A stretch of DNA of 64,000 nucleotides from an uncultured Verrucomicrobiae bacterium (GCA_963740185.1 CAVUDH010000001.1:386839-450838), one strand, 5' to 3'. Shown: positions 5,974 through 61,701, counted from the stretch's first letter. Notes: a model not told the origin generated them from the letters alone. Program-made: numbers and translations.

Positions 5974-6008
5974 ACTCGAAAATCCAAACTCGAAACTCGA
6001 AAATCTCA
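5974..6008. repeat. Heptamer array (ACTCGAA AATCCAA ACTCGAA ACTCGAA AATCTCA)
   Basis: Five 7-nt units that end on the actP ATG. Confidence 0.85.
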
Positions 6009-7550
6009 TGGCTCTCTGGATGTTTCTTACCTTCGTGGCGGCGACTCTCGTCATCACGTATTTCAGCGCTCGTAAATCAACCGGCTCGTCCGCCTACTTC
6101 GCCGCCGGACGCCGGATCACCGGTTGGCAAAACGGACTCGCCGTCGCCGGCGATTACATGAGCGCCGCCAGTTTCCTCGGCATCGCCGGGATGATCGCGA
6201 TGAATGGCTACGACGGCTTCATGTATTCCGTCGGCTTCCTCGTCGCCTACCTCACGGTCCTCTTCATCGTCGCGGAACCCCTCCGCAACGCCGGCAAATA
6301 CACCATGGCCGACGTCCTTGCCTACCGGCTGAAACCCCGCCCCGTTCGCGCCCTGGCCTCGCTCAGCACGCTCACGGTTTCCATTTTTTACATGATCGCG
6401 CAGATGGTCGGCGCCGGCGGCCTGGTCACGCTCCTCATCCCGGGCGTCAGCTACTCGCTCACCGTCATCGGGGTCGGCGTCCTCATGGTGATCTACGTCG
6501 TCTTCGGCGGCATGCTCGCCACGACCTGGGTGCAGATCATCAAAGCCGTCCTCCTCATGACCGGCAGCATCTTCCTGAGCTTCCTCGTGATGAAGCAATT
6601 CCACTTCAGCCTCGGCGAATTCTTCGCGTCGCTCACCGCCATCTCGTCAACCGCCGCCGACGGCACCACGCAGACGCGGAATTTTCTCACGCCCAACCTG
6701 CTGTTCAAAAACCCCTGGGACCAGATCTCCCTCGGCATGGCGCTCCTCTTCGGCACCGCCGGACTGCCGCACATTCTCATCCGCTTCTACACCGTCCCCG
6801 ACGCCAAGACCGCTCGTTCGTCCGTGGTCTGGGCGATGATTATCATCGGTCTGTTTTACATCATGACAACGTTCTTTGGCTTCGGAGCCGCGAGTCTGCT
6901 CACCCCCGACTTCATCCGCGAAAACGGCGGCAACAACATGGCCGCCCCGCTGCTCGCACAGTTTCTCGGTGGTGACATCTTCTTCGCCTTCATCTGCGCC
7001 GTCGCCTTCGCGACCATCCTAGCCGTCGTCGCCGGACTCACCATCAGCGCCTCCACCAGCTTCGCGCACGACTTTTACACGAACGTCCTCCACCACGGGA
7101 AGGAAACCCGGCCCGGCGAGGAAGTCCGAGTCGCCCGCATCACCGCCTTCGCTGTCGGTGCTCTCGCGATCATCATCGCGATCGTCCTCGGAGCCGAAAG
7201 TGAACGTCGCCTTCCTCGTCGGCCTCGCCTTCGCCGTCGCCGCCAGCGCCAATCTCCCCGTGATCATCCTTTCGATCTTCTGGAAACGCTTCAACACCGC
7301 CGGCGCCGTCGCCGGTCTCTCCGTCGGCCTCGTCGGGTCCATCGCCCTCATCCTCGTGAGCCCCGATTTCATGGGCGAAAACGCCCTCTATCCGCTAAAG
7401 AACCCAGCCCTCGCCAGCATCCCGCTCGGCTTCCTGGCTGCGGTAATCGGGACCCTCCTCTCCCGCGAACCCTCCGCCGAAGCCCGCTTCGCCGAATTCC
7501 AGGTCCGGGCCAACACCGGCCTCGGCTCCGAGAAAGCCACCGAGCACTGA
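6008..7550 (+). CDS. actP: Cation/acetate symporter ActP (SSS family), frame break near 7194-7200
   Basis: Collinear with E. coli ActP as I recall it (..VNVAFLVGLAFAVAASANLPVIILSIFWKRF..). Split over ORFs 6008-... and 7158-7550. Deleting one C at 7194-7195 gives LGAKVNVAFLVG. Confidence 0.85.
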
Positions 7551-7675
7551 AGAACGCATGTCTGAACAGAAGGCAGCTAAGAGCGCAAAGAATCCTGAAA
7601 GGAAGCTTCTACGAAGCTGACCACTCGGCTCATCCCGCGCAGCGGGAGAGAACTCTCAAATCCCCAGCGATTTAT

Positions 7676-7749
7676 TGCACCGGGCGGGGGTCGAACCCAC
7701 AACCTCAGCCTTCGGAGGGCTGCGCTCTATCCAATTGAGCTACCGGTGC
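7676..7749 (-). tRNA. tRNA-Arg (anticodon CCG)
   Basis: The reverse complement GCACCGGTAGCTCAATTGGATAGAGCGCAGCCCTCCGAAGGCTGAGGTTGTGGGTTCGACCCCCGCCCGGTGCA folds as a cloverleaf. Acceptor stem GCACCGG/CCGGTGC, anticodon loop CU-CCG-AA, T-loop TTCGACC. CCA is not encoded. Confidence 0.92.
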
Positions 7750-7802
7750 GATCAGTCGGAAAATATCGCGGCCGACCCGCAAAAAGCAAGCGCGGGAAAA
7801 AC

Positions 7803-8988
7803 TCAGGCCACCAACACCGGCCCCGCACCCACCGGAGCGACCCGCCGCAGCTTCCCGACCACTCCCGGGACGATCTCCAGCGCCGCCTCCACGTCGGCCT
7901 CGGTATTGAAGCGCCCAAACGAGAACCGCAGGCTTGCCCGCGCCCGCCGATCCGAAGCCCCCATCGCCTTCAGCACGTGCGACGGCGTCACCGACCCCGT
8001 CGTGCAGGCACTCCCCGCCGAGCAACACACCCCCGCCTCGTCCAGCAGCATCAGCGCGCCCTCGGCCTCGATCCCATCAAAGGCCAGACTCGTCGTATTC
8101 GGCAGCCGTTCCTCGCGATCCCCATTCACCTCGACCCCCGTGACCTCCGCCAAAATTGTCCTTTCAAAGCGATCCCGCATCGCCCGCACCCGCGTCCGCT
8201 CGTCGGCCAATTCCCGACCAGCGATCTCCGCCGCCACGCCCATCGCGACGATCGACGCCACGTTCTGCGTCCCGCCCCGCCGCGCTTCCTCCTGACTCCC
8301 CCGCAGCATCGGCGTGAACCGAACCTTCCGATTCACGTAAAGAGCGCCAACGCCCTTCGGACAGTGCAGCTTGTGACCCGAAATCGACGCAAAATGAATC
8401 CCCGACTCCTCGAACCGAATCGGAATTTTCCCAACCGCCTGCACCGCATCGCAGTGAAAAAGCACCCGCTTCGCCCGGCAGATCTCCGCCACCCGCTCCA
8501 CCGGAAACAACACCCCGGTCTCGTTGTTGGCCCACAGCAAACTCACGACCGCCGTATCCGTCCGGATCGATTTCTCCAAACGCTCCACGTCCAGCGTCCC
8601 GTCCCCGCCCACCGGCAACCACGTCACCTCGTAACCCCGCCGCGTCAGATGCTCGCACAATTTCACCGTCGCGCTGTGCTCGACCGCCGAAGTCACCACG
8701 TGCGTGCAATCCGGATCCCGCGCCACCGCCGACAGCAACGCCGCATTCGTCGACTCCGTCCCGCAGCTCGTAAAGAGAATCTCCCGCGCCTCACAGCCTA
8801 CCAGCTCCGCCACCTGACTCCCGCGCCCGCTCGACCGCATCCCGCGCCCGCTGCCCCAACCGATAAGCGCTCGACGGATTCCCGTATTCCTCACGCAGCC
8901 ACGGCAGCATCGCGTCGACCACCTCGGGATCGACCCGCGTCGTCGCGTTATTATCGAGATAGATGAGAGGCTGATCGGCGGAAATCAT
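7803..8988 (-). CDS. Cysteine desulfurase (NifS/IscS class), frame break at 8820-8822
   Basis: Motifs LIYLDNNATT, FTSCGTESTN, SGHKLHCPKGVGALYV (PLP lysine) and the active-site SAGSACTTGS. Removing one C from the CCC run at 8820-8822 joins ..AVERAR to SQVAELVG. Confidence 0.85.
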
Positions 8989-9067
8989 CGAAAGAGCCGG
9001 GCAAATTAAGGGAACCCCCCACCCCACCGCAAGGGCGATTCCTTCCCACGCCCGGGGGATGCACCCA

Positions 9068-9097
9068 CCATTCGCCATTCACCATTGGCCATTCACC
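9068..9097. repeat. Heptamer array (CCATTCG CCATTCA CCATTGG CCATTCA)
   Basis: Four 7-nt units, 22 nt upstream of the K+ channel ATG. Confidence 0.8.
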
Positions 9098-9119
9098 AGC
9101 TACACTCCGTCGTTTCCGA

Positions 9120-10814
9120 ATGAAATTCGTCGCCACTCTCGTCGCCTACTCCGTCCACAACCGAGCCGGTCGCCGCAATCTCGTCCAGCTCTTCCGCTTC
9201 CTCGCGATCCTCCTCGCCCTCGTCACCGTCTTCAGCATCCTCTTCCACTTCATCATGGCCGCCGAGGGCCAGAAATACACGTGGATGACCGGCTTCTATT
9301 GGACGCTCACCGTCATGTCCACGCTCGGCTTCGGTGACATCACGTTCACCTCCGACCTCGGCCGCTTCTTCTCCATCGTCGTGCTCCTCTCCGGCATGAT
9401 GTTTCTCCTCGTCCTACTCCCCTTCACGTTCATCGAATTCTTCTACGCCCCGTGGATGAAGTTGCAGGAATCCCGCCGCGCTCCGCGCCAACTCCCAACC
9501 ACGCTCAGCGGACACGTCCTACTCAGCCACTTCGACCCCGTCACCGAAGCGCTCATTCCCCGCCTCGAGCAGTTCAAATTCCCCTACGCCGTGATCGTCC
9601 CCGAGCTCGAGGACGCCCTCCGCCTCCACGACGAACGGATCCACGTCGTCGTCGGAGACCTCGACGACCCCGAGACCTACCGCCGCTGCGGCGTCGAGCG
9701 GGCCGCCCTCGTCGCCGCCACCTCCACCGACCCCGTCAATACCAACGTCGCCTTCACCGTCCGCGAACTCTCCGCCGACGTCCCCATCCTCACCACCGCC
9801 AACAGTGCCGAGTCCGTCGACGTCCTCGAGCTCGCCGGCAGCACGAACGTCCTCCGCCTCGGCGAAATGATGGGCCAATCCCTCGCCCGCCGCATCATCG
9901 GCGGCGACGCGCTCTCCCACGTCATCGGCACCTTCGACGACCTCCTCATCGCCGAGGCCACCGCCGCCGGCACCCCCCTGGTTGGCAAGTGCATCGCCGA
10001 CTGCAAACTCCGCGAAAATCTCGGGGTCACCATCGCCGGCGTGTGGGAACGCGGCACCTTCGTTACGCCAAAACCCAGCACCGTCATCCAGGCCAATACC
10101 GTCCTCATCCTCGCCGGGTCCCGCGAGCAGTTCCAAAAATACGACGAACTCTTCTGCATCTACCACGTCTCCGAAGCCCCCATCGTCATCATCGGCGGCG
10201 GGCGATCCGGTCGCGCCACCGGTGCCGCCCTCGAGCGCCGCGGAGCCGATTACCGCATCGTCGAATCCCTGGCCGAGCGGATCCGCGACACCGAGCACTA
10301 CATCCACGGCGACGCCGCCTCACTCGAAGTCCTCACCCGCGCCGGCATCATGGAGGCCCCCGCCGTCGTCATCACCCCGCACGAAGACGACATCAACACC
10401 TACCTCACAATCTACTGCCGCCGCCTCCGCCCCGACATCCAGATCATCACCCGGGCCACCTTCGAGCGAAACATCTCCACCATGCACCGGGCCGGCGCGG
10501 ACTTCGTGATGTCCTACGCCTCCATGGGTGCCAACAGCATCCTCAACGTCCTGAAAAACTCCGACATCCTCATGCTCGCCGAAGGCCTCGACGTCTTCCG
10601 CGTCCCCATCCCCCCCATCCTCGCGGGCAAAACCCTCGCCGAGTCCGGCATCCGCGAGAAAACCAATTGCAGCGTCATCGCTCTCGCCGACTCCGACGGC
10701 AAACACATCAACCCCGGCCCCTCCGCCACCCTCACCGAAGGCTCTCAAATCGTCCTCATCGGCGACATCGAGGCGGAAAAAAAATTCCTCACCACCTACG
10801 GCGTCGCGATGTGA
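9120..10814 (+). CDS. Potassium channel with two RCK/TrkA domains
   Basis: Pore helix and selectivity filter TVMSTLGFGDIT. Two Rossmann-like TrkA-N segments (..IIGGGRSGRA..) with TrkA-C segments. Confidence 0.85.
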   Translation: MKFVATLVAYSVHNRAGRRNLVQLFRFLAILLALVTVFSILFHFIMAAEGQKYTWMTGFYWTLTVMSTLGFGDITFTSDLGRFFSIVVLLSGMMFLLVLLPFTFIEFFYAPWMKLQESRRAPRQLPTTLSGHVLLSHFDPVTEALIPRLEQFKFPYAVIVPELEDALRLHDERIHVVVGDLDDPETYRRCGVERAALVAATSTDPVNTNVAFTVRELSADVPILTTANSAESVDVLELAGSTNVLRLGEMMGQSLARRIIGGDALSHVIGTFDDLLIAEATAAGTPLVGKCIADCKLRENLGVTIAGVWERGTFVTPKPSTVIQANTVLILAGSREQFQKYDELFCIYHVSEAPIVIIGGGRSGRATGAALERRGADYRIVESLAERIRDTEHYIHGDAASLEVLTRAGIMEAPAVVITPHEDDINTYLTIYCRRLRPDIQIITRATFERNISTMHRAGADFVMSYASMGANSILNVLKNSDILMLAEGLDVFRVPIPPILAGKTLAESGIREKTNCSVIALADSDGKHINPGPSATLTEGSQIVLIGDIEAEKKFLTTYGVAM

Positions 10815-10852: not shown

Positions 10853-10887
10853 CAATCCAAAATCCAAAATCTAAAATCTAAAATTCT
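10853..10887. repeat. Heptamer array (CAATCCA AAATCCA AAATCTA AAATCTA AAATTCT)
   Basis: Five 7-nt units preceded by CTCACC. Same family as the arrays at 12883 and 22125. Confidence 0.85.
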
Positions 10888-11462
10888 TTCACTCGGTGAA
10901 TCAGCACGAGATTCCGAATGTAAATCGCCCAGCCGGTTCCCTGCCCCAGCACCCCCACGATGTCCCGCCGCCAGATGAAATAGATCAGCAGCATCGTCGC
11001 CCCGATCAGACTCATCCACCAGAACGACACCGGCACCACCGACCGCTTTGATTTCTCGCTGGCTGCCCATTGCACCAGCATCCGCCCGGTAAAGAGCACC
11101 TGCCCCAGCAGCCCCAGCGACACCCAGATCACCCCCACCGGGCTCGTGATGTTGAACACGCTCTCCCACCAGCCCGTCCCCGTCCGGCTCTCGTATAAAA
11201 AGCGCGAAAATTCCTCCGCCGTCAGCAACCGGTCCGTCCCCGTTCCCAACCGCGTCAGCACGTAGCCCACGGACCCATCCGGCAATTCCACCACCTGCAC
11301 CCGATCCCGTGCCCCGGGCAATCCCACCTTGAGTTCACCGCGCGGCCCCGCCATCTCGACCCCATCCGCCGCCCGCCCCAGATCGTCCAGTGGCCCGCTG
11401 ACCTCCCCGCAACCCGCGACGGCAACCGCCATCAGAACAAAAATCGAAAATCGAAAATCCAA
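10878..11462 (-). CDS. Lipid-A-biosynthesis N-terminal (LAB_N) domain membrane protein
   Basis: C-terminal half GQVLFTGRMLVQWAASEKSKRSVVPVSFWWMSLIGATMLLIYFIWRRD resembles the LpxB-N/LAB_N domain. The start is uncertain because the first codons are the heptamer array. Confidence 0.65.
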   Translation of the reverse strand: MDFRFSIFVLMAVAVAGCGEVSGPLDDLGRAADGVEMAGPRGELKVGLPGARDRVQVVELPDGSVGYVLTRLGTGTDRLLTAEEFSRFLYESRTGTGWWESVFNITSPVGVIWVSLGLLGQVLFTGRMLVQWAASEKSKRSVVPVSFWWMSLIGATMLLIYFIWRRDIVGVLGQGTGWAIYIRNLVLIHRVKEF

Positions 11463-11467
11463 AATTA
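11440..11467. repeat. Heptamer array (AAAATCG AAAATCG AAAATCC AAAATTA)
   Basis: Four 7-nt units spanning the stop of the DUF983 gene and the start of the LAB_N gene. Confidence 0.85.
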
Positions 11468-12882: not shown

Positions 12883-12917
12883 CAATCGAAAATCCAAATT
12901 CGAAAATCGAAAATCCC
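12883..12917. repeat. Heptamer array (CAATCGA AAATCCA AATTCGA AAATCGA AAATCCC)
   Basis: Five 7-nt units preceded by CTCACC. Ends 3 nt before the GTG at 12921. Confidence 0.85.
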
Positions 12918-12920: not shown

Positions 12921-14423
<1,503 letters not shown>

Positions 14424-20496: not shown

Positions 20497-20527
20497 CCCA
20501 CCCCCACCTTCCCCCCTCGGCATCAAA

Positions 20528-20610
20528 GTCGCCATTTCTCATTCCGCATTTCTAATTTCTAACCTGGCATCCGAGTCGCCATTTCTCATTTCGCATTTCT
20601 AATTTCTAAT
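20528..20610. repeat. Two 36-nt direct repeats, each built of CATTTCT-type heptamers
   Basis: GTCGCCATTTCTCATTCCGCATTTCTAATTTCTAAC at 20528-20563 and a near-identical copy at 20575-20610. Same family as the array at 23790. Confidence 0.85.
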
Positions 20611-20621
20611 TTTCCCCACCC

Positions 20622-21701
20622 GTGGATTTCGCCCCTCTCATCACCCGCATTCAGGACCGCTTCGCCGAACTCGACGCCGCCATCGCCTCCCCCGATCTCT
20701 ACGACGACCCCAGGCGCGCGCAGGAGATCCTCCGCGACCACTCGCGCCACCGCAGCCTCATCGAGAAATGGGACGCCTTCAGCAAGGCCACCCGCGAACT
20801 CGCCGAAAACCGCGAACTCGCCGCCGCCAGCGATCCTGAGATGGCCGAGCTTGCCCGCGCGGAAATCACCGACCTCGAAGAGCAACTCCCCCAGCTCGAG
20901 TTCGCCCTCCGCATCGCCCTCCTCCCGCCCGAACCCGACGAGGACAAGGACGCCATTGTCGAAATCCGGGCCGGCACCGGTGGAACGGAAGCCGCCCTCT
21001 TCGCCGCCGACCTCTACCGCATGTACACCCGCTTCGCCGAAGTCGCCGGTCTCAAGATCGAGATCATGGACAGCTCCGAATCCGACCTCGGCGGCCTCAA
21101 GGAAATCGTCTTCCGGCTCACCGGCGAATCCGTCTTTCGCCGCATGCGCTACGAATCCGGCCCCCACCGCGTCCAACGCGTCCCCGCCACCGAGACCCAG
21201 GGCCGCATCCACACCTCCGTCGCCACCGTCGCCGTACTCCCCGAAGCCGAAGAAGTCGACCTCGACCTACCCATGAGCGACCTCCGCATCGAAGTCTGCC
21301 GCTCCGGCGGCCCCGGCGGCCAGGGCGTCAACACCACCGACTCCGCCGTCCAGATCATGCACATCCCCACCGGCCGCATCGTCCGCTGTCAGGACGGTCG
21401 CTCGCAGATCCAAAACAAAGCCAGCGCCCTCCAGATCATGCGCTCCCGTCTACTCGAAGACAAACGCCGCGCCGAAGAAGAAAAATATTCCGCCCACCGC
21501 AAAGCCCTCCTCGGCGGAGGCGGACGCGAAGAAAAAATCCGCACCTACAACTACGCGCAAAACCGCGTCACCGACCACCGCATCGGCCTCACGCTTTACA
21601 ATCTCGACCGCTTCATCGAAGGCGACATCCTCGAGATGATCGAAGCCCTCGCCGCCTCCGACCTCGAAGACCGCCTCGTTGCGGAGACAACCGCCAACTA
21701 A
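20622..21701 (+). CDS. prfA: Peptide chain release factor 1
   Basis: GGQGVNTTDSAV (GGQ motif) and the RF1-type P-A-T tripeptide (RVPATETQGRIHTS). GTG start. Confidence 0.93.
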   Translation: MDFAPLITRIQDRFAELDAAIASPDLYDDPRRAQEILRDHSRHRSLIEKWDAFSKATRELAENRELAAASDPEMAELARAEITDLEEQLPQLEFALRIALLPPEPDEDKDAIVEIRAGTGGTEAALFAADLYRMYTRFAEVAGLKIEIMDSSESDLGGLKEIVFRLTGESVFRRMRYESGPHRVQRVPATETQGRIHTSVATVAVLPEAEEVDLDLPMSDLRIEVCRSGGPGGQGVNTTDSAVQIMHIPTGRIVRCQDGRSQIQNKASALQIMRSRLLEDKRRAEEEKYSAHRKALLGGGGREEKIRTYNYAQNRVTDHRIGLTLYNLDRFIEGDILEMIEALAASDLEDRLVAETTAN

Positions 21702-21808
21702 ACGGGATTGACTGGATTCACATGATTAACGGGATTTTTGAAGGGACCTGAAACGAATCCCTTTTTCCCCATCCTGTTAATCCAGAAAATCCTGTTAATC
21801 CTGTTTAG
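21698..21808. repeat. Hairpin element copy 2 (9-bp array arms), includes the prfA stop codon
   Basis: Left arm CTAAAC GGGATTGAC TGGATTCAC ATGATTAAC, right arm ... TGTTAATCC AGAAAATCC TGTTAATCC TGTTTAG, inner stem AAGGGA/TCCCTT. Fills the prfA-prmC spacer. Confidence 0.75.
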
Positions 21809-21812: not shown

Positions 21813-22646
21813 ATGACGACGCTCGAAGTTCTAAACGCCGCCGCCTCCTACCTGGCCAGGCACGACATCGAGTCCCCCCGCCTGAACGCCGAGCACCTCC
21901 TCGCTCACTCGCTCGGCAAGAAACGCCTCGACCTCTACCTCGAGTTCGACCGCCCGCTCAGCGAAGCCGAACGCGCCCCCCTCCGCGAACTCATCCGCCG
22001 ACGCGGCGGCGGTCACCCGCTCCAGCACCTGCTCGGCACCACCGAATTCCACGGCCACGAATTTCTCACCGACCCCCGCGCCCTCATCCCCCGCCCCGAA
22101 ACCGAACATCTCGTCGAACTCACCAAATCCAAAATCCAAAATCCAAAATCCAAAATTGCCGACATCGGCACCGGCAGCGGAGTCATCGCGATCACCCTCG
22201 CCCTCGCCCTCCCCAACGCCACCATCTACGCCACCGACCTCAGCCCCGACGCCCTCACCCTCGCCCGGGAAAACGCCACCCGCCTCGCCGCCACCAACGT
22301 CACTTTTCACGCCGTCGATCTCCTTCCACCCGGCGACGCCCGCTACGACGCCATCGTCGCCAACCTCCCCTACATCCCCGCCGCCGAGGTCGCCTCACTT
22401 TCCCGCGAGGTCCAGCACGACCCCACCGCCGCCCTCGACGGCGGTCCCGACGGCCTCGATCCCATCCGCCGTCTGATTGATCTCGCTCCCGCCCGCCTGA
22501 CCCCCGGCGGACACCTCTTCCTCGAGATCGGCCACGACCAATCCGACCGCGTCATCGACCTCTGCCTGACCGCCGGATTCGCCACCGCCACCGCTCTCCC
22601 TGACCTCGCCGACGTCCCCCGCTTCATCGTGGCCGCCGCAACCTGA
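21813..22646 (+). CDS. prmC: Release-factor glutamine N5-methyltransferase
   Basis: PRPETE, DIGTGSGVIA (SAM binding), NLPY (NPPY-type) motif. Follows prfA. Confidence 0.88.
   Translation: MTTLEVLNAAASYLARHDIESPRLNAEHLLAHSLGKKRLDLYLEFDRPLSEAERAPLRELIRRRGGGHPLQHLLGTTEFHGHEFLTDPRALIPRPETEHLVELTKSKIQNPKSKIADIGTGSGVIAITLALALPNATIYATDLSPDALTLARENATRLAATNVTFHAVDLLPPGDARYDAIVANLPYIPAAEVASLSREVQHDPTAALDGGPDGLDPIRRLIDLAPARLTPGGHLFLEIGHDQSDRVIDLCLTAGFATATALPDLADVPRFIVAAAT
22125..22159. repeat. Heptamer array (AAATCCA x4 + AAATTGC) translated as KSKIQNPKSKI
   Basis: Preceded by CTCACC. Encodes the variable linker before the DIGTGSG motif of prmC. Confidence 0.85.
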
Positions 22647-23789: not shown

Positions 23790-23831
23790 CCATTTCTCAT
23801 CCCGCATTCCACATTCCTCATTTCTCATTCC
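23790..23831. repeat. Heptamer array (CCATTTC TCATCCC GCATTCC ACATTCC TCATTTC TCATTCC)
   Basis: Six 7-nt units between the AI-2E stop and the next ATG. Confidence 0.85.
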
Positions 23832-23857
23832 ACCGAACTCATTGTATTGAATGGGCC

Positions 23858-24386: not shown

Positions 24387-24824
24387 ATGAAATCCTGCGT
24401 CCGATCACCCCGCTTCTGGTGGGCTCTCTTCGTCGGGTGGCTGCTCACGGTCTGCGTCCTGTCGTCCATTCCCGGAAATCAATTCCGCACCACCGACCTG
24501 CCGAACGCCGACAAGTTCGTCCACGTCGCTATCTTCCTCACCGGCGCGGGTTTGCTCACCTTCGCCCTCCGCACCGGCACCGCCTGGTCGACCGCCCGCA
24601 TCGCCATCCTCACCTTCCTCGCCCTCTCCGCGTTCGCAATCGCCGACGAATTTCACCAGACCTTCACCCCGCACCGCAGCGGCGCCGACGTCGGCGACCT
24701 CATCGCCGACACCATCGGCACCCTCCTTGGCGTCATTCTCGCACTCACGATTCATGCCCAGCTCAAAAACAGACAGCGCCCCAAAGCAACTCTCGGAACT
24801 CCGAGCCCGGATCCAGCGGCATAA
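24387..24824 (+). CDS. VanZ-like membrane protein
   Basis: Four TM helices with DKFVH and ADEFHQ.F.P.R....DL.AD motifs. The 3' end overlaps the ligA start by ~70 nt. Confidence 0.72.
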   Translation: MKSCVRSPRFWWALFVGWLLTVCVLSSIPGNQFRTTDLPNADKFVHVAIFLTGAGLLTFALRTGTAWSTARIAILTFLALSAFAIADEFHQTFTPHRSGADVGDLIADTIGTLLGVILALTIHAQLKNRQRPKATLGTPSPDPAA

Positions 24825-27002
24825 CGCGCTCTACCACGAGCAGGCCGCCCCCGAGATTACCGACCAGCAATACGACGCGCTCTACGCCGCGCTCGTCGCC
24901 CTCGAAGCCGCGCACCCCAATCTCGTCACCGCCGACTCGCCGACTCAGACCGTCGGCGGCCACGCCATCCTCGACGCCTTCCAGCCCGCCCAGCACCTCG
25001 TCCGGATGCAGAGCCTGGACAACACCTACTCCGAAGCCGAAGTCGCCGAATTCGTCCGCCGCATGCAGCGCCTCCTCCCCGGCGAAGACATTCCGCTCAC
25101 CGTCGAACCCAAGGTCGACGGCGTCGCGATCTCCCTCCTCTACGAAGGCGGAAAATTCGTCCGCGCCGTGACCCGCGGCGACGGCACCACCGGCGACGAC
25201 GTCACCGGCAACGCCCGCACCATCCGCTCGATTCCCGACACCCTCCTCGGCCCGGCCCCGGATCGCATCGAAATCCGCGGCGAAATCTACCTGCCAAAAA
25301 CCGAGTTCGTTCGCGTCAACGCCGAACGCGACGAAGCGGGTCTCCCCGCCTTCGCCAACCCTCGCAACACCGCCGCCGGCACGCTGAAACAGCTCGACTC
25401 CCGCGTCGCCGCCTCGCGCAACCTCGGGGCCGTCTTCTACGGATTCGGCCTCATCGAAGGCGACGCCCCCGGCACGCAATCCGCTTTCATGGATTGGCTC
25501 AAAAGTGCCGGCCTCCCCACTACCGAATGGCAGCGCCTGACCACCACCATCGACGAAACCCTCGCGGCCATCCGCGAACTCGGCCACGTCCGCCATGACT
25601 TTGTCTTCGAAACCGACGGAGCCGTCCTCAAAGCCAACCACCTCGAGCAGCAACGCGCCCTCGGCTCCACCAGCAAAGCCCCGCGCTGGGCGATGGCCTA
25701 CAAGTACGAATCCGAGCAAGCCGAGACCCGCCTCCACGACATCACCGTCCAGGTCGGCCGCACCGGCGTCCTCACCCCCGTGGCGGAACTCGATCCCGTC
25801 ACCGTGAGCGGCAGCAACGTCGCCCGCGCGACCCTGCACAACGAAGAAGAGATCGCCCGCAAAGACATCCGCATCGGCGACACCGTCGTCATCGAAAAGG
25901 CCGGCGAAGTCATCCCCGCCGTCATCCGCGTCCGCACCGACCTTCGCACCGGCGACGAACGCACGTTCGAGATGCCCACCCACTGCCCCGCCTGCAACGA
26001 CCCCGTCGTGCGGGAAGACGGCTTCGTCGCCGTTCGCTGCGTCAATCTCCACTGCCCCGCGCAAACCACGCGCCTGCTCGAGCACTTCGCGATGCGCGGC
26101 GCGCTCGACATCGAAGGCCTCGGAGACAAGGTCGCCCTCACCCTCGTCGAGCGCGGCCTCGCCCGCTCACCGCTCGATCTCTTCGACCTCACGCTCGACG
26201 TCCTCGGCCCGCTCAACCTCGGCACCACCGAAGAGCCCCGCACCTTCGGCGAAAAGAACGCCCGCAAGCTCCTCGACGCCCTCGAACGAGCCCGGACCGC
26301 CCCGCTCTGGCGCTGGCTTTTCGCCCTCGCCATCCCCGACATCGGCGCCGTCACCGCCCGCGACATCGGCGAACTCCACCCCGACCTCGCCGCCGTCGCC
26401 AACTCCGAAATCCTCCGCGACACCGTCCGCCTCCACGCGCTCAACGAACAAATCACCCGCGAAAATCCCGCCAGCCGCTCCCACAAGGATCTCCCAAAGG
26501 AAGAACGCGAAGCGATGAAGCCCGCTTGGGAAACCCTCAAGCAAACCGCCGACGAACTCGCCGAAAAACTCATCGCCGCTCACGCCGCTTCACCATCCAA
26601 GGCCCAGGGCAAGGCTCCCCGCGACGCCAACACCCGGATCGGCCCCGTCGCCGCGACCGCCGCACTCCGATGGTTCGAGAGCGAACCCGGCCGCCAACTC
26701 CTCGCCAAGCTCACCGCCCACGGCATCAACCCGGTCGCCGAACCGCCCACCACCGCCGAATCCACCGACGGTTGCCGTTCACCGGAAAAACCTTCGTCAT
26801 CACCGGCACCCTCAGTCAGCCCCGCGACGAGATCGCCGACGCGATTCGCCAACACGGCGGCAAAGTCACCGGCTCGGTCAGCGCAAAAACCGACTACCTC
26901 GTCGCCGGCAACGAAGCCGGCAGCAAACTCGAAAAGGCTCAAAAGCTCGGCCTCAAAATCCTCGACGAGCCAGCGTTCCAAAAGTTGCTCAACCCGTCTT
27001 AA
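24754..27002 (+). CDS. ligA: NAD-dependent DNA ligase, frame break (missing base) near 26771-26773
   Basis: Adenylation motif [13 protein letters not shown]/Zn finger CPACN...C.N..CPAQ, HhH repeats. The BRCT domain ([14 protein letters not shown]...) is in the next frame (ORF 26526-27002). Confidence 0.9.
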
Positions 27003-27052
27003 TTCCTTTCACCCTCTGCGGAATCCGCGAAATCTGCGGTCAAATCACCTCA

Positions 27053-28270: not shown

Positions 28271-28271
28271 C

Positions 28272-28349: not shown

Positions 28350-28370
28350 AATATCCCCACCGACCCGCCC

Positions 28371-36725: not shown

Positions 36726-36760
36726 CAAACCATCAACCAATAACCATCAACCAATAACCA
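36723..36760. repeat. Heptamer array (CCATCAA CCAATAA CCATCAA CCAATAA)
   Basis: Fills the spacer between the 70-aa gene and the ATPase start on the opposite strand. Confidence 0.8.
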
Positions 36761-37514: not shown

Positions 37515-37520
37515 CTCCCC

Positions 37521-37883: not shown

Positions 37884-37931
37884 TCACCAGTCACCCCCTC
37901 CACCAATCACCAGTCACCAGTCACCAATCAC
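37884..37931. repeat. Heptamer array (TCACCAG/TCACCAA type)
   Basis: Abuts the ATG of the ABC gene. Lies in the divergent promoter region shared with the WXG cluster. Confidence 0.8.
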
Positions 37932-39768
<1,837 letters not shown>

Positions 39769-39789
39769 CGCGACGGGATGATGATTCTC

Positions 39790-39862: not shown

Positions 39863-39966
39863 AGCCTCCGCATCGTATTTCCTTCCACCCTCACCGATCC
39901 CCCACGTCCCCCAACTCCTCCGCCTGAGCTTCCTTCCGCTCGCGCTGCCGATGCCTCACCCGACTC

Positions 39967-40557
39967 TCACCAAAGCCCGCCCGGCCACGCGTCGTCCGCC
40001 TCCCGCGCCGCCGCCTCGTGCTTGTCGATGAGCGCCGTCAGCGGATCAGGTGCGCCGAGAATTTCGTCCGGCAACGCCCAGATTCTCTCAAAGGTCCGCC
40101 GCCTCGCCGTCGCCTCGTCGGAAGGATCGAGTGGATTCGCCTCCCGCGCCAAATGATCGCGCCAACTCTCGAGGTCCCGGGCCAGGGCGTGATGCCGTCG
40201 AAACCAATTCCGCGCGGTCTTCTGGGCCTCGTCCAGCCAGCGAAGCAGGTCCAATCGATCCACCGAAGCGAGTCTCGCCTCCGCCGCCGTCCGGTTCCGT
40301 TCCACTCCGGCCAGCACCGAGTGCCAGACGATCAGGAAAACCTCCGTCCGCGATCCCCGCTCCTCCTTCCGACAGGAGTCACACCAGAGTTCCTCCCGGA
40401 TGATCCCGTAAACCACGGGGCTCGAACTCAAGACCGAGCCGATCTTAAAAGTCGCCATCGCACAATCGAACTCCTTCGTCTGAAGGTCGGAAATTTCCTT
40501 CCCGCAAAACCCGCACGGAATCGCCGGCGAAAAATTGATCGTGTCGAACATCCCCAC
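39967..40557 (-). CDS. Hypothetical protein with Cys4 (CGFCG...CDSC) N-terminal module
   Basis: ORF with coding-like composition. No family recognised. GTG start, with an ATG 2 codons in. Confidence 0.45.
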   Translation of the reverse strand: MGMFDTINFSPAIPCGFCGKEISDLQTKEFDCAMATFKIGSVLSSSPVVYGIIREELWCDSCRKEERGSRTEVFLIVWHSVLAGVERNRTAAEARLASVDRLDLLRWLDEAQKTARNWFRRHHALARDLESWRDHLAREANPLDPSDEATARRRTFERIWALPDEILGAPDPLTALIDKHEAAAREADDAWPGGLW

Positions 40558-40871
40558 CCTTCCACGATAAGACGATCCTCGCCTTCATCAAGCCAAGGCA
40601 TTCGCATTCCAACTGTCGGCACCGCAATCAAGCTCCCCGCCCGCCGGGAAGCCACTTTGAATTATTCTTCCTCGCAGAGGCCCTGGCCGTTCAGCCCAGC
40701 TGGTTCCAGACGCGCTCCGGAAGCGGAAACTCGCCACCCAGCTCGGGCGGAGCTTCGTTGGGGCTCCCTCACTGCGAACCAAGACTGCAAATCAGGGACT
40801 TTTCGGTGCAGCGGGCACCTCGGAAGCCCCTTGCGTAAACCCTGGTCTACGTGCAACCGTGCTGCACGAAA

Positions 40872-41108
40872 ATGAACGTCACGTTGAAACTACCCGATCA
40901 TCTCTGTCGCGAGGCCAAACACCGCGCGATCCACGAGTCCAAATCCTTTTCACAATGGACCGCAGACTTGATCCGGCTCGAACTTGTCCGATCCCAACCG
41001 GATCGGAGGACTCTCCTCGAGCGCTTGGGAGATCCCGCGAGCGCCGATCAGGACTTCGAGCTTCCCGACCGGAACGACGATCGGGAACGACCCATCTCGT
41101 TTCGGTGA
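40872..41108 (+). CDS. vapB: VapB-type antitoxin (RHH-like)
   Basis: MNVTLKLPDHLCREAKHRAIHESKSFSQWTADLIR. Stop overlaps the GTG of the PIN gene (GTGA). Confidence 0.7.
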   Translation: MNVTLKLPDHLCREAKHRAIHESKSFSQWTADLIRLELVRSQPDRRTLLERLGDPASADQDFELPDRNDDRERPISFR

Positions 41109-41530
41109 ACGCGGTCCTACTCGACACGGTCACCATCTCCGAACTCCGCAAAGACAAACGAGCCGATCCGGCGGTCCAACGATGGCAGGAAACATCGCGG
41201 ACGTTCGAATCCTGGATCAGCGTCACGACACCTCTCGAAATCAGGGTCGGCATCCTTCGGGTGCGTCCCCGCGATCCAGCGTTTGCCGAAACCCTCGAAG
41301 CGTGGTTGCTGAACATTGTCCTGCCCGAATTCTCCGACCGCACCCTGGGGATTGACCTCACGATCGCACTCCAAGCCGCAGAATACCGGGTTCTCCACGG
41401 ACTGGCCCCCAACGACTCCCTCATCGCCGCCACCGCCAAAATCCACGGCCTCACCCTCGCCACGCGCAATGTCGCCGACTTCGCGAGCACCGGCATCGCG
41501 CTCGTCAATCCCTGGGAACTCCCCGCCTGA
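41105..41530 (+). CDS. vapC: VapC-type PIN-domain toxin
   Basis: Four PIN acidic positions in context: LLDT, TPLEI, NDSLIAATA, TRNVADF. Confidence 0.85.
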   Translation: MNAVLLDTVTISELRKDKRADPAVQRWQETSRTFESWISVTTPLEIRVGILRVRPRDPAFAETLEAWLLNIVLPEFSDRTLGIDLTIALQAAEYRVLHGLAPNDSLIAATAKIHGLTLATRNVADFASTGIALVNPWELPA

Positions 41531-41686
41531 ATTGCCACTCTCTTGCGGCTACGCACCCGCCGCACCCCCCAGCGGAACCCCGACAATCACCTCGCCCAGC
41601 GCCGGATTCAATACCTCCGCCCGCTCCACCGCCTCCGGCAACAGCCACCTCCCCACGAACGAGCCGAAAACCCTCACGAATTCAAT

Positions 41687-41954
41687 CCATCAACCAAAAA
41701 CCATCAACCGCGCCACCGGTGCCCTCGCCTTCGAAGCCGTTAACTTCCGCTACTCCTCCCGCGCCGACACCCGCCTCATCGCCAACCGCACCGCCCTCAT
41801 CATCGCCCACCGCCTGGCCACGATTCGCCCAGTCGACCGCATCTACGTGGTCGAATCCGGCACCGTCATCGAATCCGGCACCCACACCGAACTCACCGCC
41901 AACCCCCACGGCCACTACCGCCGCATCGCCGAAATGCAATTCACCCACCCCTAG
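41687..41954 (+). pseudogene. Remnant of an MsbA-like ABC gene (linker + start of NBD fused to the last ~60 codons)
   Basis: ..ALAFEAVNFRYSSRADT | LIANRTALIIAHRLATIRPVDRIYVVESGTVIESGTHTELTANPHGHYRRIAEMQFTHP*. Walker A through Walker B are missing. The 3' ~175 nt are roughly 90 percent identical by eye to 39590-39768. Confidence 0.78.
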
Positions 41955-41989
41955 CCAGCGGACTCTATCAGCTGATAAGCTCGAGCAGC

Positions 41990-42403
41990 TCAGCCCCGCT
42001 CACTCACCGCCTCACGGAGAAGCCCATCCAACTTCGTCAAATCAAACGGCTTCACGAAGTGCTCCCGAAAACCCGCCTCCAGACTTCGCCGCCGATCCGA
42101 GCCTCCGCCAAACCCGCTCATCGCGATGGCAAAATCCGGTGGATCATTCGCAATTTGCCCCAGCAGTTCCCACCCGCTTCCGTCCGGCAGCCCGATGTCG
42201 GAAATTAACACCTCACACCCGTCCGTGTTGAGCAGCCGAACCGCGTCTCTCACGGAACCTACCGCTCGCACCCGGTGGCCCGCCATCTCGAGATACATTC
42301 GCAGGTATTTCCGCGTGTCGGCATGATCTTCCACCACAACAATATTCAGCGATTCCGTGGCCAGGTTCCCGCATCGGTCCGCGCGCTCCCGGGAAGCGAT
42401 CAC
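41990..42403 (-). CDS. Single-domain CheY-like response regulator
   Basis: IVVVEDH...VLISDIGLPDGSG...AMSGF...KPF. The start is uncertain (GTG at 42403 is proposed; the ORF is open to 42679). Confidence 0.72.
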   Translation of the reverse strand: MIASRERADRCGNLATESLNIVVVEDHADTRKYLRMYLEMAGHRVRAVGSVRDAVRLLNTDGCEVLISDIGLPDGSGWELLGQIANDPPDFAIAMSGFGGGSDRRRSLEAGFREHFVKPFDLTKLDGLLREAVSERG

Positions 42404-46419: not shown

Positions 46420-47160
46420 CTAACCTCGCGCCACGGTGATTGCGTTGACGGAGGCCGCCCCGGCCTCGACGAGGACGCGCGCGCACTCGTCGAGCGTCGA
46501 GCCCGTCGTCAGGATATCGTCCACCAGCAAAATGTGTCGGTCAGCCACCCGCGCATTCTGGCTCAGCTCGAACGCGTCGCGCAAGTTTTGCATCCGCCGC
46601 TTTCGGTCGAACCGCGTCTGCGTCACCGTGTAACGCCGCCTCCGCAACGCGCTCACCGTCGGCACGCCGCGCAGCCGCGTCACCCATTCCGCCAGCTCCT
46701 GCGCCTGATTAAACTGCCGCTCCCGCTCCCTCGTCGGGTGCAATGGCACCGGCACCAACCCATCGGGCTCGACGTCAGCCAGCCTCGAATCGTCCAGCGC
46801 CTCCGCCAACCAAGTCCCCAGCAACCGCCGCAACGACCGCTCACGACCGTATTTATAACGATGCATCAACTCCCGCACCGGCCCCACGCACCGCATCACC
46901 GCCACCCCGCTGTCGAAATGAAACGCGTGGTCCCGGCAATTCGGACACTCCAGCTCATCCACCATTCCATCAAACGGATGCGAACACGTCCCGCATCGAG
47001 GTAACTCCACGCGCCGCACCCCCGCCGCACACCGCTCGCAGATCAGCTCCCGCTCCCCCACCGCCCGGTCGCAAGCCGCGCAATGCGCGGGGTAAAACAA
47101 ACCCGTCAGCGCATCGAGCCACGGACGCACCGCACTCACCCGGAATTCCGCATTCCGCAT
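46420..47160 (-). CDS. comF: ComF-family phosphoribosyltransferase protein
   Basis: Cys-rich N-terminus (C..C....C..C) and the PRTase motif ILLVDDILTTGST. The start is either the ATG at 47160 or the GTG at 47139 (GTGA overlap with the upstream stop). Confidence 0.8.
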   Translation of the reverse strand: MRNAEFRVSAVRPWLDALTGLFYPAHCAACDRAVGERELICERCAAGVRRVELPRCGTCSHPFDGMVDELECPNCRDHAFHFDSGVAVMRCVGPVRELMHRYKYGRERSLRRLLGTWLAEALDDSRLADVEPDGLVPVPLHPTRERERQFNQAQELAEWVTRLRGVPTVSALRRRRYTVTQTRFDRKRRMQNLRDAFELSQNARVADRHILLVDDILTTGSTLDECARVLVEAGAASVNAITVARG

Positions 47161-48137
47161 TCCGCATTCCGCAATTTCCCAAGATACCAGGCAACCATCG
47201 CCGCCGTCAGCAGCAGCGCCACCAGCGGAACAACGCCAGTCGGGACCATTCCGCTCACCACGTTCGGCCCGATCCACGGCATCCAGGCGTCCGACGGCTT
47301 GATCCGAAATTTCGCGAAAAGGTTCAGCGACTGCTGACCCAGGATCCAACCCGCGTGCAGCCCGATCGGCAGCCACAACGAGTGCGTGCGCCGACAAGCC
47401 AGCGCCAGGATGATCCCAATCACGAAGAGCGTGACGCAACCCGCGAGAAAAATCCCCACAGTATCCACGCTCGAAAACGCCGATCCCAGCAGCTCGAACC
47501 CGCTCGTCCACCCGACGTCCTCCCGCGCGATCTTCCCACGCGGTTTGAAAAAGTGCACCAGCGCAAAGATCGCCGACACCGACAGGATGCCCGGCCATTT
47601 CCCGACGAACCGGATCGCCAACCCCAGCATCACGCCCCGGAAAATGAATTCCTCGAAGACCGACACCGCCGTCGCCGTCCCCAGAATCCGAATCAACGTC
47701 CCGAAGCCCGCGTCCTCCCGCACCTTGTAGACCTCCAGCGAGAGGTAGACCGCCGCCAGCGCCACCAGCGGCACGATCGCGCAGACCAGCCCGACCACGA
47801 CATCCCGCACTGCACGCCCGTTCCGCTCGATCCCCAATTCCCTCAGACTCCGGATGTGCAGCCACCACGCCGCCGGCACGATCAACACCAGCGCCGACAC
47901 CTGAGCGATCCGACCCCAGTAGCGAAAAAACGGAAACTTCTCCGCCGCCGGGATCCATCCCGAATCGGCCAGCGCCATTGCCGCCCAGTAAATTGGCGGC
48001 GACAACACGCACGCGATCAGAATCACCGTAACTACGAACAACAGTATTTTAGCGAAAGGATTCACAACCCCTCGACGCTTACACCCAAGGGGCGGACAGA
48101 GCGAATCATAGCCGACCCAGCCGGGCAACCGCAGCAT
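47136..48137 (-). CDS. CPBP-family (CAAX/Abi) intramembrane metalloprotease
   Basis: EEFIFRG and FALVH motifs in a polytopic protein. Start uncertain. Confidence 0.75.
   Translation of the reverse strand: MLRLPGWVGYDSLCPPLGCKRRGVVNPFAKILLFVVTVILIACVLSPPIYWAAMALADSGWIPAAEKFPFFRYWGRIAQVSALVLIVPAAWWLHIRSLRELGIERNGRAVRDVVVGLVCAIVPLVALAAVYLSLEVYKVREDAGFGTLIRILGTATAVSVFEEFIFRGVMLGLAIRFVGKWPGILSVSAIFALVHFFKPRGKIAREDVGWTSGFELLGSAFSSVDTVGIFLAGCVTLFVIGIILALACRRTHSLWLPIGLHAGWILGQQSLNLFAKFRIKPSDAWMPWIGPNVVSGMVPTGVVPLVALLLTAAMVAWYLGKLRNAECGMRNSG
47142..47177. repeat. Heptamer array (GCATTCC x3, flanked by GGAATTCC and GCAATTT)
   Basis: Covers the CPBP stop and the comF start. Translated as RNAECGMRN in both reading contexts. 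Confidence 0.85.
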
Positions 48138-60007: not shown

Positions 60008-60907
60008 TTGAACTCGCTCCAGCACTCTTGCCCCCTTGCCCCGTCTTCCGTCGTCGCCGCGCTGACCCTTCTTCTCGTCGGCGCAACGTTCGCCCACGCC
60101 GAGAAACTCGAAGCCGATCTTTCCGGCAGGGTTCTCCTGTTCGAGCCCGCCGAAACCATCGACCGACAGATGGACGCCCACGTCATTCTGCGTTCGGAAC
60201 TCGGGCTCATCGAGGACATCGAAGTTTACACCGAATGGAGCGGCCCGCTGGGTGCCCGGCAAAAGAGCTGGGAATTCTACGACGTCGTCGGCACGCAATA
60301 CGCTGGATACGTCGAGCGGCTCTTCACCGACGACAGCGGCATCATCCGATTCAGCCGCACCGAGGTCAGCGGATTCATTTCGCAGGAAATTGACGCAAAG
60401 TCCGGCTCCGGCGAAGTGTCGTGGATCATCGACGAAGACGGCGACTTCCGCGACGAAACCGAGGACCCCGAAGACTCCGACCTGGACCTCGACGGCGTCC
60501 CCGACGACATCGATCCCGAAATCGACACGCCCGAGCGGGACGCCGACGAAGAAGGGGAACTGAACCTCGTCCTCTTCCGCTCCATCAATTTCAAATCCAC
60601 CGGCGACAACGATCACCCGGAGGTCACCCTCGTCGAAGAAGGTGATGAGACGCTCTCCGAAGGACTCGCCCGCCGCCACGAAGCCGAGTTGGAGGGAATC
60701 GGCGACGGCTCCCTCGCATTCGACCAGAACCGAGCCAACCGCGAACGCGAAGAAGCACTCGAAGAGGCCCAGCCGGACGCTCAGCCGGACTCGGGTCCCT
60801 CCCCCGACCCGACGCCCGATGCGGAGTTGGACAATGGTTTCGATGAAGAAACGGATGAGTTTATCGATGACCCCGACCCCGACCCCGACATCGATTCCTC
60901 GATCTGA
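60008..60907 (+). CDS. Secreted, extremely acidic hypothetical protein
   Basis: TTG start, signal peptide (..LLLVGATFAHA). The C-terminal half is dominated by D/E/P. Confidence 0.5.
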   Translation: MNSLQHSCPLAPSSVVAALTLLLVGATFAHAEKLEADLSGRVLLFEPAETIDRQMDAHVILRSELGLIEDIEVYTEWSGPLGARQKSWEFYDVVGTQYAGYVERLFTDDSGIIRFSRTEVSGFISQEIDAKSGSGEVSWIIDEDGDFRDETEDPEDSDLDLDGVPDDIDPEIDTPERDADEEGELNLVLFRSINFKSTGDNDHPEVTLVEEGDETLSEGLARRHEAELEGIGDGSLAFDQNRANREREEALEEAQPDAQPDSGPSPDPTPDAELDNGFDEETDEFIDDPDPDPDIDSSI

Positions 60908-60949
60908 CGGGACGGCACCGCTCCGGACTCGAGGCAGCGACCCGCACGA

Positions 60950-61630
60950 TCAGGTCGAACGAGCGAAGCGGGCAATCAAGAGCAAGTCACACCGATAAAA
61001 ATCGGTGAGAATTTCCTGCTCGCGGCTTCCGACGGTTGGCACCGACGACGCAGCGTTCGTCCGATTCTTCGATTGCAATTCGACCCCCCGAATTCCGAGC
61101 TGCCCGCAAATCCGGGCGAACGCCCCGGGCAACGACCCAAAGTGCCCCGCAAAATCGAGGCAGGGAACCCCGTTTTCATCCGAGACGAAAAACGTCTGCG
61201 GGCGGAAGTGGACGTAATTTTGGATGCTTGAGTCCTCCCGAAACGCCGCGACAAACGTCGGAAAATCGCCGAACGCTTCGCGGTGATCCTTTCGGAATCT
61301 CGAGTCCTGTTCGTTGATCCCACCGCCGCGCAGAAATCGATAAGCGGAAACGAAACGATCCACCGGATCGCGGAGAATACAAAATTTCCAATAGCGCGTC
61401 ATCGTCCTCGGGTCCGCCAGCGCGCACCGGCGATAAATCCGGTGATTGGTATGGTGCCCTTCGAGCAAACTCTCGCTGATCGCGATACCGCCGGTTTTGG
61501 GGATGTGAAAAAAGACGCACTGATGCCGTCGCTCGAATGGACTCAAAAAATCCTCCTCCTCCGCCAACCCCAACCGTCGGCGAATTCGGTTCCGTTGGTG
61601 AATGGTGAGCAACTTGGCCGGGTGAATCAT
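60950..61630 (-). CDS. Sulfotransferase-family protein (PKTGG-type 5'-PSB loop)
   Basis: FFHIPKTGG near the N-terminus and RDPVDRFVSAY (3'-PB-like). Confidence 0.72.
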   Translation of the reverse strand: MIHPAKLLTIHQRNRIRRRLGLAEEEDFLSPFERRHQCVFFHIPKTGGIAISESLLEGHHTNHRIYRRCALADPRTMTRYWKFCILRDPVDRFVSAYRFLRGGGINEQDSRFRKDHREAFGDFPTFVAAFREDSSIQNYVHFRPQTFFVSDENGVPCLDFAGHFGSLPGAFARICGQLGIRGVELQSKNRTNAASSVPTVGSREQEILTDFYRCDLLLIARFARST

Positions 61631-61673
61631 CGAAAATTTCGCTCCGCGAAGGATCTATCGCTGGTTCTCCTCC

Positions 61674-61701
61674 CACTCAACTCTCAACTCCGAACTCTCA
61701 A
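61674..61701. repeat. Heptamer array (CACTCAA CTCTCAA CTCCGAA CTCTCAA)
   Basis: Four 7-nt units, 44 nt upstream of the sulfotransferase start on the opposite strand. Confidence 0.8.

Follow-up and report, generated by a model that had tools for sequence, protein, structure and literature searches.

Seven-Nucleotide Tandem Arrays at Gene Boundaries and Protein Linkers in a Strand-Biased Verrucomicrobial Genome

The stretch of DNA analyzed here comprises 64,000 nucleotides (nt) from an uncultured Verrucomicrobiae bacterium (GCA_963740185.1, CAVUDH010000001.1:386839-450838; the window). It carries 15 short tandem arrays of seven-nucleotide units, set among and within genes on both strands (about 27 kb of coding sequence on the plus strand and about 30 kb on the minus strand; Table 1). 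The nearest matches of its PrfA protein (20622-21701) come from metagenome-assembled genomes of uncultured Chthoniobacterales, Terrimicrobiaceae or "Spartobacteria". The closest is 95% identical (P0001, ENA ERZ25039505 contig_19781) and the next 92%; the host is a Chthoniobacterales/Terrimicrobiaceae-like Verrucomicrobium. The window has a GC content of 63.7% and a GC skew that stays between -0.12 and -0.39 throughout.

An initial annotation had listed 15 arrays of tandem seven-nucleotide units, all G-poor on the plus strand. Tandem Repeats Finder (TRF) recovers every one of them within a few bases of the coordinates first noted. A strict lag-match scan of the window over periods 4-15 detects seven arrays at period 7 and six at period 14, the latter consistent with double-period detections of period-7 arrays, and at most one at any other period. 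Chance expectation, estimated from 60 block-wise dinucleotide shuffles, is a mean of 0.05 period-7 arrays with a maximum of 1. The window arrays are therefore head-to-tail repeats with a unit in the 5-11 nt range that run longer than composition predicts, as is characteristic of heptameric simple sequence repeats (SSRs). At least nine different units are represented. The flanking similarities that had been pointed out can also be read directly from the sequence: CTCACCAAT precedes three AAAATCS arrays, and CGCCATTTCTCAT occurs at both 20528 and 23790. A search against Rfam found a tRNA alone; no known RNA family overlaps any of the arrays.

The common polarity of the arrays is equally clear. 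Their pooled composition on the plus strand is 6% G, 34% C, 37% A and 22% T (40% GC), corresponding to a GC skew of -0.70 and an AT skew of about +0.25. Only one period-7 hit departs from this C-richness, a trivial CGTCGAG repeat of 2.1 copies within a gene, and TRF detects no AT-rich period-7 array of the opposite polarity in the window.

To place the arrays relative to genes we relied on an approximate gene map, built from third-position GC content, Pfam hits and the gene calls of syntenic relatives. On this map 11 of about 42 intergenic gaps bear an array. Eleven arrays thus fall into roughly 7 kb of intergenic sequence and four into 57 kb of coding or unassigned sequence, an approximately 20-fold enrichment in non-coding DNA that bears out the annotated concentration at gene boundaries. 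Ten of the intergenic arrays stop 0-46 nt short of a start codon, and one lies between convergent genes. At operon junctions the array makes up essentially the entire spacer. Six arrays form leaders of plus-strand genes and four form leaders of minus-strand genes, so that the RNA sequences of the two sets are complementary. The earlier observation that polarity does not follow the transcript is thereby confirmed, and it argues against one sequence-specific role at the RNA level. Three of the four arrays outside intergenic gaps are located in recognized inter-domain linkers, namely those of an NtrC-like protein, of PrmC (joining its N-domain to the methyltransferase motif) and of an ABC exporter; the fourth, at 41682, lies in unassigned sequence.

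The arrays had also been described as occupying the place of a Shine-Dalgarno (SD) sequence. This comparison is apt as far as position is concerned, since ten arrays sit just upstream of start codons. SD motifs, however, are generally absent or not enriched in this lineage. On the C-rich strand GGAG or GAGG precedes none of 32 genes (control 4/32); on the G-rich strand the count is 6 of 35, identical to the control (6/35). The prfA gene starts with GTG in the window (20622) and in the relatives L081 (10001) and L001 (10001). The 10 other relatives shown have ATG instead, and no SD motif precedes prfA in any of these genomes.

Table 1. Heptanucleotide arrays of the window, with unit, approximate copy number and genetic context
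Unit and copies	Coordinates	Strand	Context	Source
ACTCGAA/AATCCAA x4.1	5974..6002	+	takes up the 40-nt spacer that separates the stop of a small open reading frame (5629-5967) from the ATG (6008) of an actP-like gene (SSF family)	TRF, Pfam
CACCATT x4.7 (14-nt super-period x2.4)	9066..9098	+	225-nt divergent gap; ends 21 nt before the ATG (9120) of a TrkA-type channel gene	
AATCCAA/AATCTAA x4.4	10854..10884	+	convergent gap; includes the stop codon of a LAB_N-family gene (10878-10880, minus strand)	
AAAATCG x3.7	11440..11465	+	where two minus-strand genes meet, 0-7 nt before the start of the LAB_N gene	
AATCGAA x4.6	12884..12915	+	between prenyltransferase stop (12872) and NtrC-like GTG (12921)	
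CACCAAT x5.7	14160..14199	+	within NtrC-like gene, linker between AAA+ lid and HTH_8 domain	
47-nt unit x1.9, built of CATTTCT/CATTCCG heptamers	20519..20612	+	between rpmE terminator hairpin and prfA GTG (20622)	
AAATCCA x4.6	22125..22156	+	within prmC, linker directly before the (I/L)D(V/I)GTGSG S-adenosylmethionine motif	
CATTYCN x about 6	23791..23833	+	between AI-2E transporter stop (23787) and glyoxalase-family ATG (23858)	
AACCATCAACCAAT x2.4 (two heptamers per unit)	36728..36760	+	about 27 nt upstream of the start of a minus-strand FtsK/SpoIIIE (EssC-like) gene	
CACCAAT/CACCAGT x4.4	37901..37931	+	abuts ABC exporter ATG (37932); degenerate units back to about 37884	
ACCAATC x5.3 (perfect)	38988..39032	+	within ABC exporter, linker between membrane and ATPase domains	
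TCAACCA x3.9, weakest (76% matches, TRF score 33)	41682..41709	+	window-specific segment, coding status uncertain	
ATTCCGC x4.1 (perfect)	47145..47173	+	encodes the last codons of an Rce1-like gene (minus strand); at or across the comF-like start region	
CTCAACT x3.9	61676..61702	+	precedes a minus-strand sulfotransferase-family gene (start at 61630) by 46 nt	

The arrays inside genes are made of codons that end in A or T. Their third-position GC content, counted from the sequence, is about 27-47%, compared with 0.81-0.85 across the same genes. This contrast shows that the DNA repeat is primary and the encoded peptide secondary. Codon usage likewise led us to reject protein-level selection of coding heptad repeats. 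A CRISPR-like array was also considered and rejected.

We then asked how the polarity of the arrays compares with the composition of the surrounding DNA. The window shows a strong strand bias (C far above G) regardless of gene orientation. Third-position GC skew is -0.57 for plus-strand genes; minus-strand genes have +0.36 when read in the sense direction, equivalent to -0.36 on the plus strand. At four-fold degenerate sites of plus-strand genes, C accounts for 79% and G for 11% (GC skew -0.75); the corresponding sites of minus-strand genes, read on the plus strand, hold 66.5% C and 17% G (GC skew -0.59). Since this bias ignores gene orientation, the genes of the two strands use largely different synonymous codons. 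A four-fold strand bias of this size appears very unusual beside typical bacterial values, and a literature search on this order turned up no description of extreme GC skew in the lineage of the window. The same bias is present in L001, L002, L005, L011, L081, L082 and L203-L205. At most loci of more distant Chthoniobacterales the absolute skew is below 0.1, which indicates that extreme skew is a clade-specific trait. The strand skew is a bigger surprise than the repeats and may merit study by itself.

Against this background the polarity of the arrays is unremarkable. Their GC skew of -0.70 falls within the range of the four-fold sites (-0.59 to -0.75), and their AT skew has the same sign as that of third positions (+0.16 to +0.24). 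Among loci of high skew, every array scored by TRF at period 7 with at least 2.8 copies has a GC skew between -0.33 and -1.00 (14 arrays in the window, four in L081, two in L082 and one in L001), and the arrays of L203 are C-rich by sequence. The array-rich relatives of low skew behave differently. In L043, L044, L047, L052, L061 and L063 both orientations of the same unit types occur within one 21-kb locus, often as inverted pairs that form hairpins between convergent genes (AATGACG ... TTCGTCA; L044 13750-13834, L047 14021-14095, L052 14564-14673 and 18162-18291). The uniform G-poor polarity is a property of the genome and not of the repeats. Since the skew of the arrays equals that of neutral sites and both orientations occur in low-skew relatives, neither a strand-specific mechanism nor a protein that binds one strand is needed. 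The initial annotation had proposed a link to the replication strand, with one-strand protein binding as one possible form of it. The link survives only in the weak sense that array polarity matches the strand bias of unconstrained DNA; the strand-specific repeat mechanism is dispensable, and so is the bound protein.

Two observations from this comparison stand apart. The hairpin formed by the inverted pair in L047 lies between apparently convergent open reading frames and resembles a bidirectional terminator made of microsatellites. A metagenome scan with the pattern AATCNMMAATCNMMAATCNMMAATC, intended to relate polarity to local skew, was discarded; the pattern also matches (CCCCAAT)n, and the approximately ten high-GC hits were mixed. 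Most of the scan matches listed (AATCNMM x3.6; L083-L162) are contigs of 1-14 kb and 14-33% GC that carry (CCCCAAT)n, often at both ends in inverted orientation. In this arrangement they resemble telomere-capped small linear eukaryotic chromosomes, and they are unrelated to the arrays.

The fate of individual arrays was followed in the nearest genome available for comparison, the syntenic relative L081/L203, which shares about 80% DNA identity with the window and has the 95% identical PrfA. Arrays at 11440, 12884, 20519, 22125, 23791, 38988 and 47145 have counterparts at the same site in this relative, from which they differ by a 7-nt indel, by a 47-nt duplication or by unit substitutions that are repeated along the array. 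The orthologue of the 11440 array in L081 has 2.7 copies instead of 3.7, a difference of one 7-nt indel; the 12884 array is kept there with G-to-T changes in its units, the 20519 site holds a single copy of the 47-mer, and the 23791 site holds a diverged array. At the 38988 site L203 carries an AACCAAC-type array, and at the 47145 site it carries CATTTCC/CATCTCG units of equal total length. Other arrays are missing from L081/L203. The 14160 site in L081 is occupied by non-repeat sequence of almost equal length, no array is found at the 37901 site in L203 or L204, and the 10854 array has no counterpart, its site in L081 holding an extra gene and no array. In the more distant L204 the linker array of the ABC exporter is absent and the linker is 9 nt shorter. 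Conversely, the L081/L203 comparison revealed one additional array, ATTTCAA x5.9, that abuts the ATG of an aminotransferase gene, and the distant relative L058 contains the CTCAACT unit of the 61676 array in 8.4 copies. Two-copy 7-nt duplications, considered as a signal of array birth, are in 2.5-fold excess in the window, but the relatives show no such excess, which leaves the signal uninformative.

Two sites could be followed further. In most Chthoniobacterales the spacer between rpmE and prfA consists of a terminator hairpin followed directly by the ATG, with no insert. In the clade of the window, 60-116 nt of heptamer-like repeats are inserted at this position, with units that differ between genomes: CATTTCT in the window, L081 and L001, GACCTTC x15.6 in L082, and CCGACYTT in L002 and L011. 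The L082 array (9882-9997, 116 nt, directly before prfA) is by far the longest heptamer array that we found. The linker in prmC is similarly diverse, with AAATCCA in the window and L081, CTCTCNA in L001 and CAATCAC in L082; among distant relatives the units are AAAATCG (L051, L062, L063), CCAAATC (L043, L047) and TGCCGAA (L044). Differing copy numbers, the 7-nt indel at 11440 and the 15.6 copies in L082 constitute the whole-unit indels that are the signature of slippage. Leader arrays vary between relatives. The in-gene arrays of prmC, the ABC exporter and the comF junction change their units while reading frame and length are kept, and they are absent from more distant relatives. This conservation of frame and length argues against on/off switching. 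Together, the sequences indicate that the arrays undergo concerted evolution at fixed, tolerant sites.

We conclude that heptamer arrays characterize the Chthoniobacterales as a lineage and reach a particularly high density in the genome of the window. The reading that we favor, with a probability of roughly 0.6, is that they are slippage-generated heptamer SSRs that turn over at tolerant sites (spacers and linkers) and owe their polarity to the strand bias of the genome. Replication slippage together with template switching within an array would create the arrays and keep them homogeneous. The sites that they occupy are places where insertions are tolerated, namely the flexible linkers that join protein domains, and the short stretches that separate a start codon from the stop codon or terminator preceding it. 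Their uniform G-poor polarity would then be how weakly constrained DNA looks on the C-rich strand of a genome with extreme bias. Any function is probably secondary and local, such as the setting of spacer length; that a role as spacer or unstructured leader is the main cause of their persistence seems rather unlikely. For genes on the C-rich strand, the arrays may perhaps supply a leader that is AT-rich and G-free, and hence unstructured, in a lineage without SD sites. The comparison shows that heptamer arrays evolve in concert at fixed sites that include linkers of essential genes. A single repeat family shared by sister lineages, some weakly and some extremely strand-biased, also provides a clean natural experiment, which separates traits of the repeat (period, AWTC core, AT-richness and proximity to start codons) from a trait of the genome (polarity).

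Several observations weigh against this reading. With 40% GC, compared with about 85-90% at four-fold sites, the arrays are not simply neutral DNA at equilibrium. All arrays in long gaps adjoin a start codon. The units of the window and its relatives share a core, (A/C)A(A/T)TC, which emerges under unbiased choice of rotation and strand: the information content of the units is 6.5 bits across all 45 arrays, compared with 4.40 +/- 0.27 after shuffling, and 5.71 bits across the 26 unique units, compared with 4.75 +/- 0.19 (z about 5). Pure slippage of arbitrary 7-mers does not predict such a core. The prmC arrays of the window and L081 agree at 32 of 32 positions, compared with about 80% identity in the genes around them, and heptamer arrays occupy the prmC site even in very distant relatives. 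Finally, replacement of the units of in-gene arrays at constant length is awkward for slippage, because each step of +/-7 nt shifts the reading frame.

Some of these observations could be accommodated if the arrays were functional elements of 5'-leaders, which by analogy with other systems might serve as landing pads for ribosomes or bind a single-stranded nucleic acid-binding protein (of the S1, cold-shock-domain or a similar type), with the number of units tuning expression. We regard this proposal as tentative and rather unlikely. It would account for the proximity of ten intergenic arrays to start codons, and in particular for the five longer gaps, in all of which the array sits at the start-codon end (rough post hoc probability 0.002). 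It also agrees with the lack of SD motifs and with the recurrence of arrays before prfA in four relatives with differing units; the AT-richness and the AWTC core need some explanation in any case. Precedents are the role proposed for TAACTGA repeats (PMC4679880) and the promoter and 5'-UTR (untranslated region) heptamers of Haemophilus. Leaders of array-bearing plus-strand genes are predicted to fold more weakly (mean -3.95 compared with -8.10 kcal/mol, p = 0.027, from a small sample in which orthologues are not independent), but arrays bring no reduction in folding to leaders of minus-strand genes. Since plus- and minus-strand leaders carry complementary sequences, there is no single RNA motif to be recognized. 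Nor are all arrays leaders: one is found between convergent genes and three or four are intragenic, and low-skew relatives have arrays as hairpins at convergent 3' ends. Moreover, the shortness of spacers at operon junctions inevitably places any array there close to a start codon, and most relatives translate the same genes without arrays.

A related idea takes the core itself as the cause. A (A/C)A(A/T)TC core repeated every seven nucleotides may be a real recognition or mechanistic determinant, and the AT-richness of the arrays and their deep persistence at the same site, as in the prmC linker, point in the same direction; we nevertheless consider this unlikely. The determinant could be a single-stranded nucleic acid-binding protein that uses arrays as SD-independent translation platforms tunable by copy number. 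Another candidate is a conserved replisome feature that would favor GAWT/AWTC heptamers as the unit of slippage. By inspection, a GAWT/AWTC core is also contained in the GGGAATC units of Xanthomonas and the GGGGATT units of Nostoc (PMC4692102). If true, the shared core might be the reason for the general predominance of heptamers among the long SSRs of bacteria.

It is more doubtful still that polarity is intrinsic to the repeats, either because slippage is confined to the lagging strand or because a protein reads the AWTC core on one strand, in which case arrays would mark the direction of replication. The consistently negative GC skew of arrays in high-skew loci and the core shared among units would fit such a mechanism. 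Units of the AAAATCG type, in which G equals C, also occur in the A-rich orientation throughout; they amount to three arrays in the window and two L081 orthologues, too few to judge. As the polarity of the arrays is quantitatively that of neutral sites, the extra mechanism is unnecessary, and the two orientations found within 21 kb of low-skew relatives speak against it, as does the lack of leading- or lagging-strand preference among the heptamer repeats of Xanthomonas (PMC4692102). That the arrays are a chance product of skewed low-complexity composition or an artefact of assembly might be suspected from the very biased composition and the apparent frameshifts in actP and the ABC exporter, but this is refuted by the shuffles, by the restriction of the excess to period 7 and by same-site arrays in independently assembled genomes.

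Returning to the window itself, some features beside the arrays deserve mention. A palindromic element of about 115 nt occurs in two copies (266-382 and 21698-21808). Its arms consist of about four tandem 9-mers (AACAGGATT ... AATCCTGTT), its ends are CTAAACRGGATT ... AATCCYGTTTAG, and its RNA is predicted to fold with -51.5 kcal/mol (z = -9.3). One copy fills the spacer between prfA and prmC, its left end including the prfA stop codon, and an element is found at the same place in L081 and L082. The element has an AATCC/GGATT core in common with the heptamers.

Three reading frames of the window appear to be disturbed. The actP-like frame (6008-7738) continues after about residue 405 as Arg/Pro-rich nonsense, and its tail overruns a tRNA-Arg gene on the minus strand. 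The frame of the ABC exporter (37932-40031) encodes 699 residues, where relatives have 602, and its homology ends at about residue 546. The ligA gene and the downstream aminotransferase gene are joined in a single frame of 1287 residues (24727-28590). These frameshifts and read-throughs reflect either indel errors of long-read assembly or pseudogenes; the broken frames stay open because stop codons are rare on the C-rich strand. Two segments of the window are absent from L203: about 32860-37800, with the FtsK/SpoIIIE EssC-like gene and two small genes, and about 40560-42360, with a PIN-domain gene. The two window-specific arrays at 36728 and 41682 lie inside these segments.

How do these arrays compare with known repeats? 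The initial annotation knew of no description of this repeat class, but an over-representation of heptanucleotide SSRs is already on record. According to the work of Mrazek et al. (2007), as relayed in PMC4679880 and PMC4692102, heptanucleotides are the most abundant class of long SSRs (units of 5-11 nt) in many bacteria, and an origin by slippage has been proposed in which seven nucleotides correspond to the contact length of the polymerase. The window arrays resemble the long SSRs of that account in that heptamers exceed chance, are mostly intergenic, occur in free-living bacteria and show no link to virulence genes. They differ from it, as relayed, by several units with a common core, by a single polarity in a genome of extreme strand bias and by arrays in protein linkers. 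A full-text literature search with three terms turned up no description of heptamer repeats for Verrucomicrobia or this lineage, and the arrays of the window extend the phenomenon to soil Verrucomicrobia.

The closest parallels in architecture are the GGGAATC repeats of Xanthomonas and the GGGGA(C/T)T repeats of Nostoc, which comprise about four copies and are approximately 90% intergenic near the ends of reading frames (Rehm et al. 2015, PMC4692102). As with these and other cyanobacterial heptamers, the arrays described here have about four copies, lie at the ends of reading frames and, at conserved positions, vary extensively in length and sequence from one related species to the next. Repeats of Xanthomonas and Nostoc are mostly located just downstream of reading frames, whereas the window arrays are mostly found just upstream of start codons. 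The former are rich in G tracts, form G-quadruplexes or i-motifs and show no preference for strand or for leading or lagging orientation (PMC4692102). In the consensus units of the window neither G nor C occurs in runs of three, and G makes up only 6% of the arrays; the arrays have one polarity, and none is paired. Inverted hairpin pairs of the Xanthomonas type are matched only in the low-skew relatives.

TAACTGA repeats of marine Beggiatoaceae, some cyanobacteria and Bacteroidetes occur in 2-6 copies a few nucleotides before start codons in SD-poor genomes, where they overlap the expected ribosome-binding site; a few copies lie inside reading frames (MacGregor 2015, PMC4679880). The window arrays share with them the direct heptamers next to start codons and the scarcity of SD motifs. 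TAACTGA sets consist of a single unit that is oriented forward to the downstream gene (169 direct versus 1 indirect; PMC4679880). In the window neither a single unit nor a gene-fixed orientation is found: there are at least nine units, oriented by DNA strand. Heptanucleotide repeats in the promoter and 5'-UTR of hmw1A in Haemophilus influenzae are contingency (phase-variation) loci (PMC8262952, PMC12721329). Here too, seven-base repeats lie between promoter and start codon, and copy number could grade expression. Contingency loci, however, are known from surface-protein genes of host-adapted pathogens, with many copies and variation within strains, whereas the window arrays accompany housekeeping genes, have 3-6 copies and keep the frame inside genes. 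The arrays of the window thus belong to the known class of heptameric SSRs, within which they are distinct by the diversity of their units, the lack of G or C tracts, their uniform polarity and their recurrence in protein linkers.

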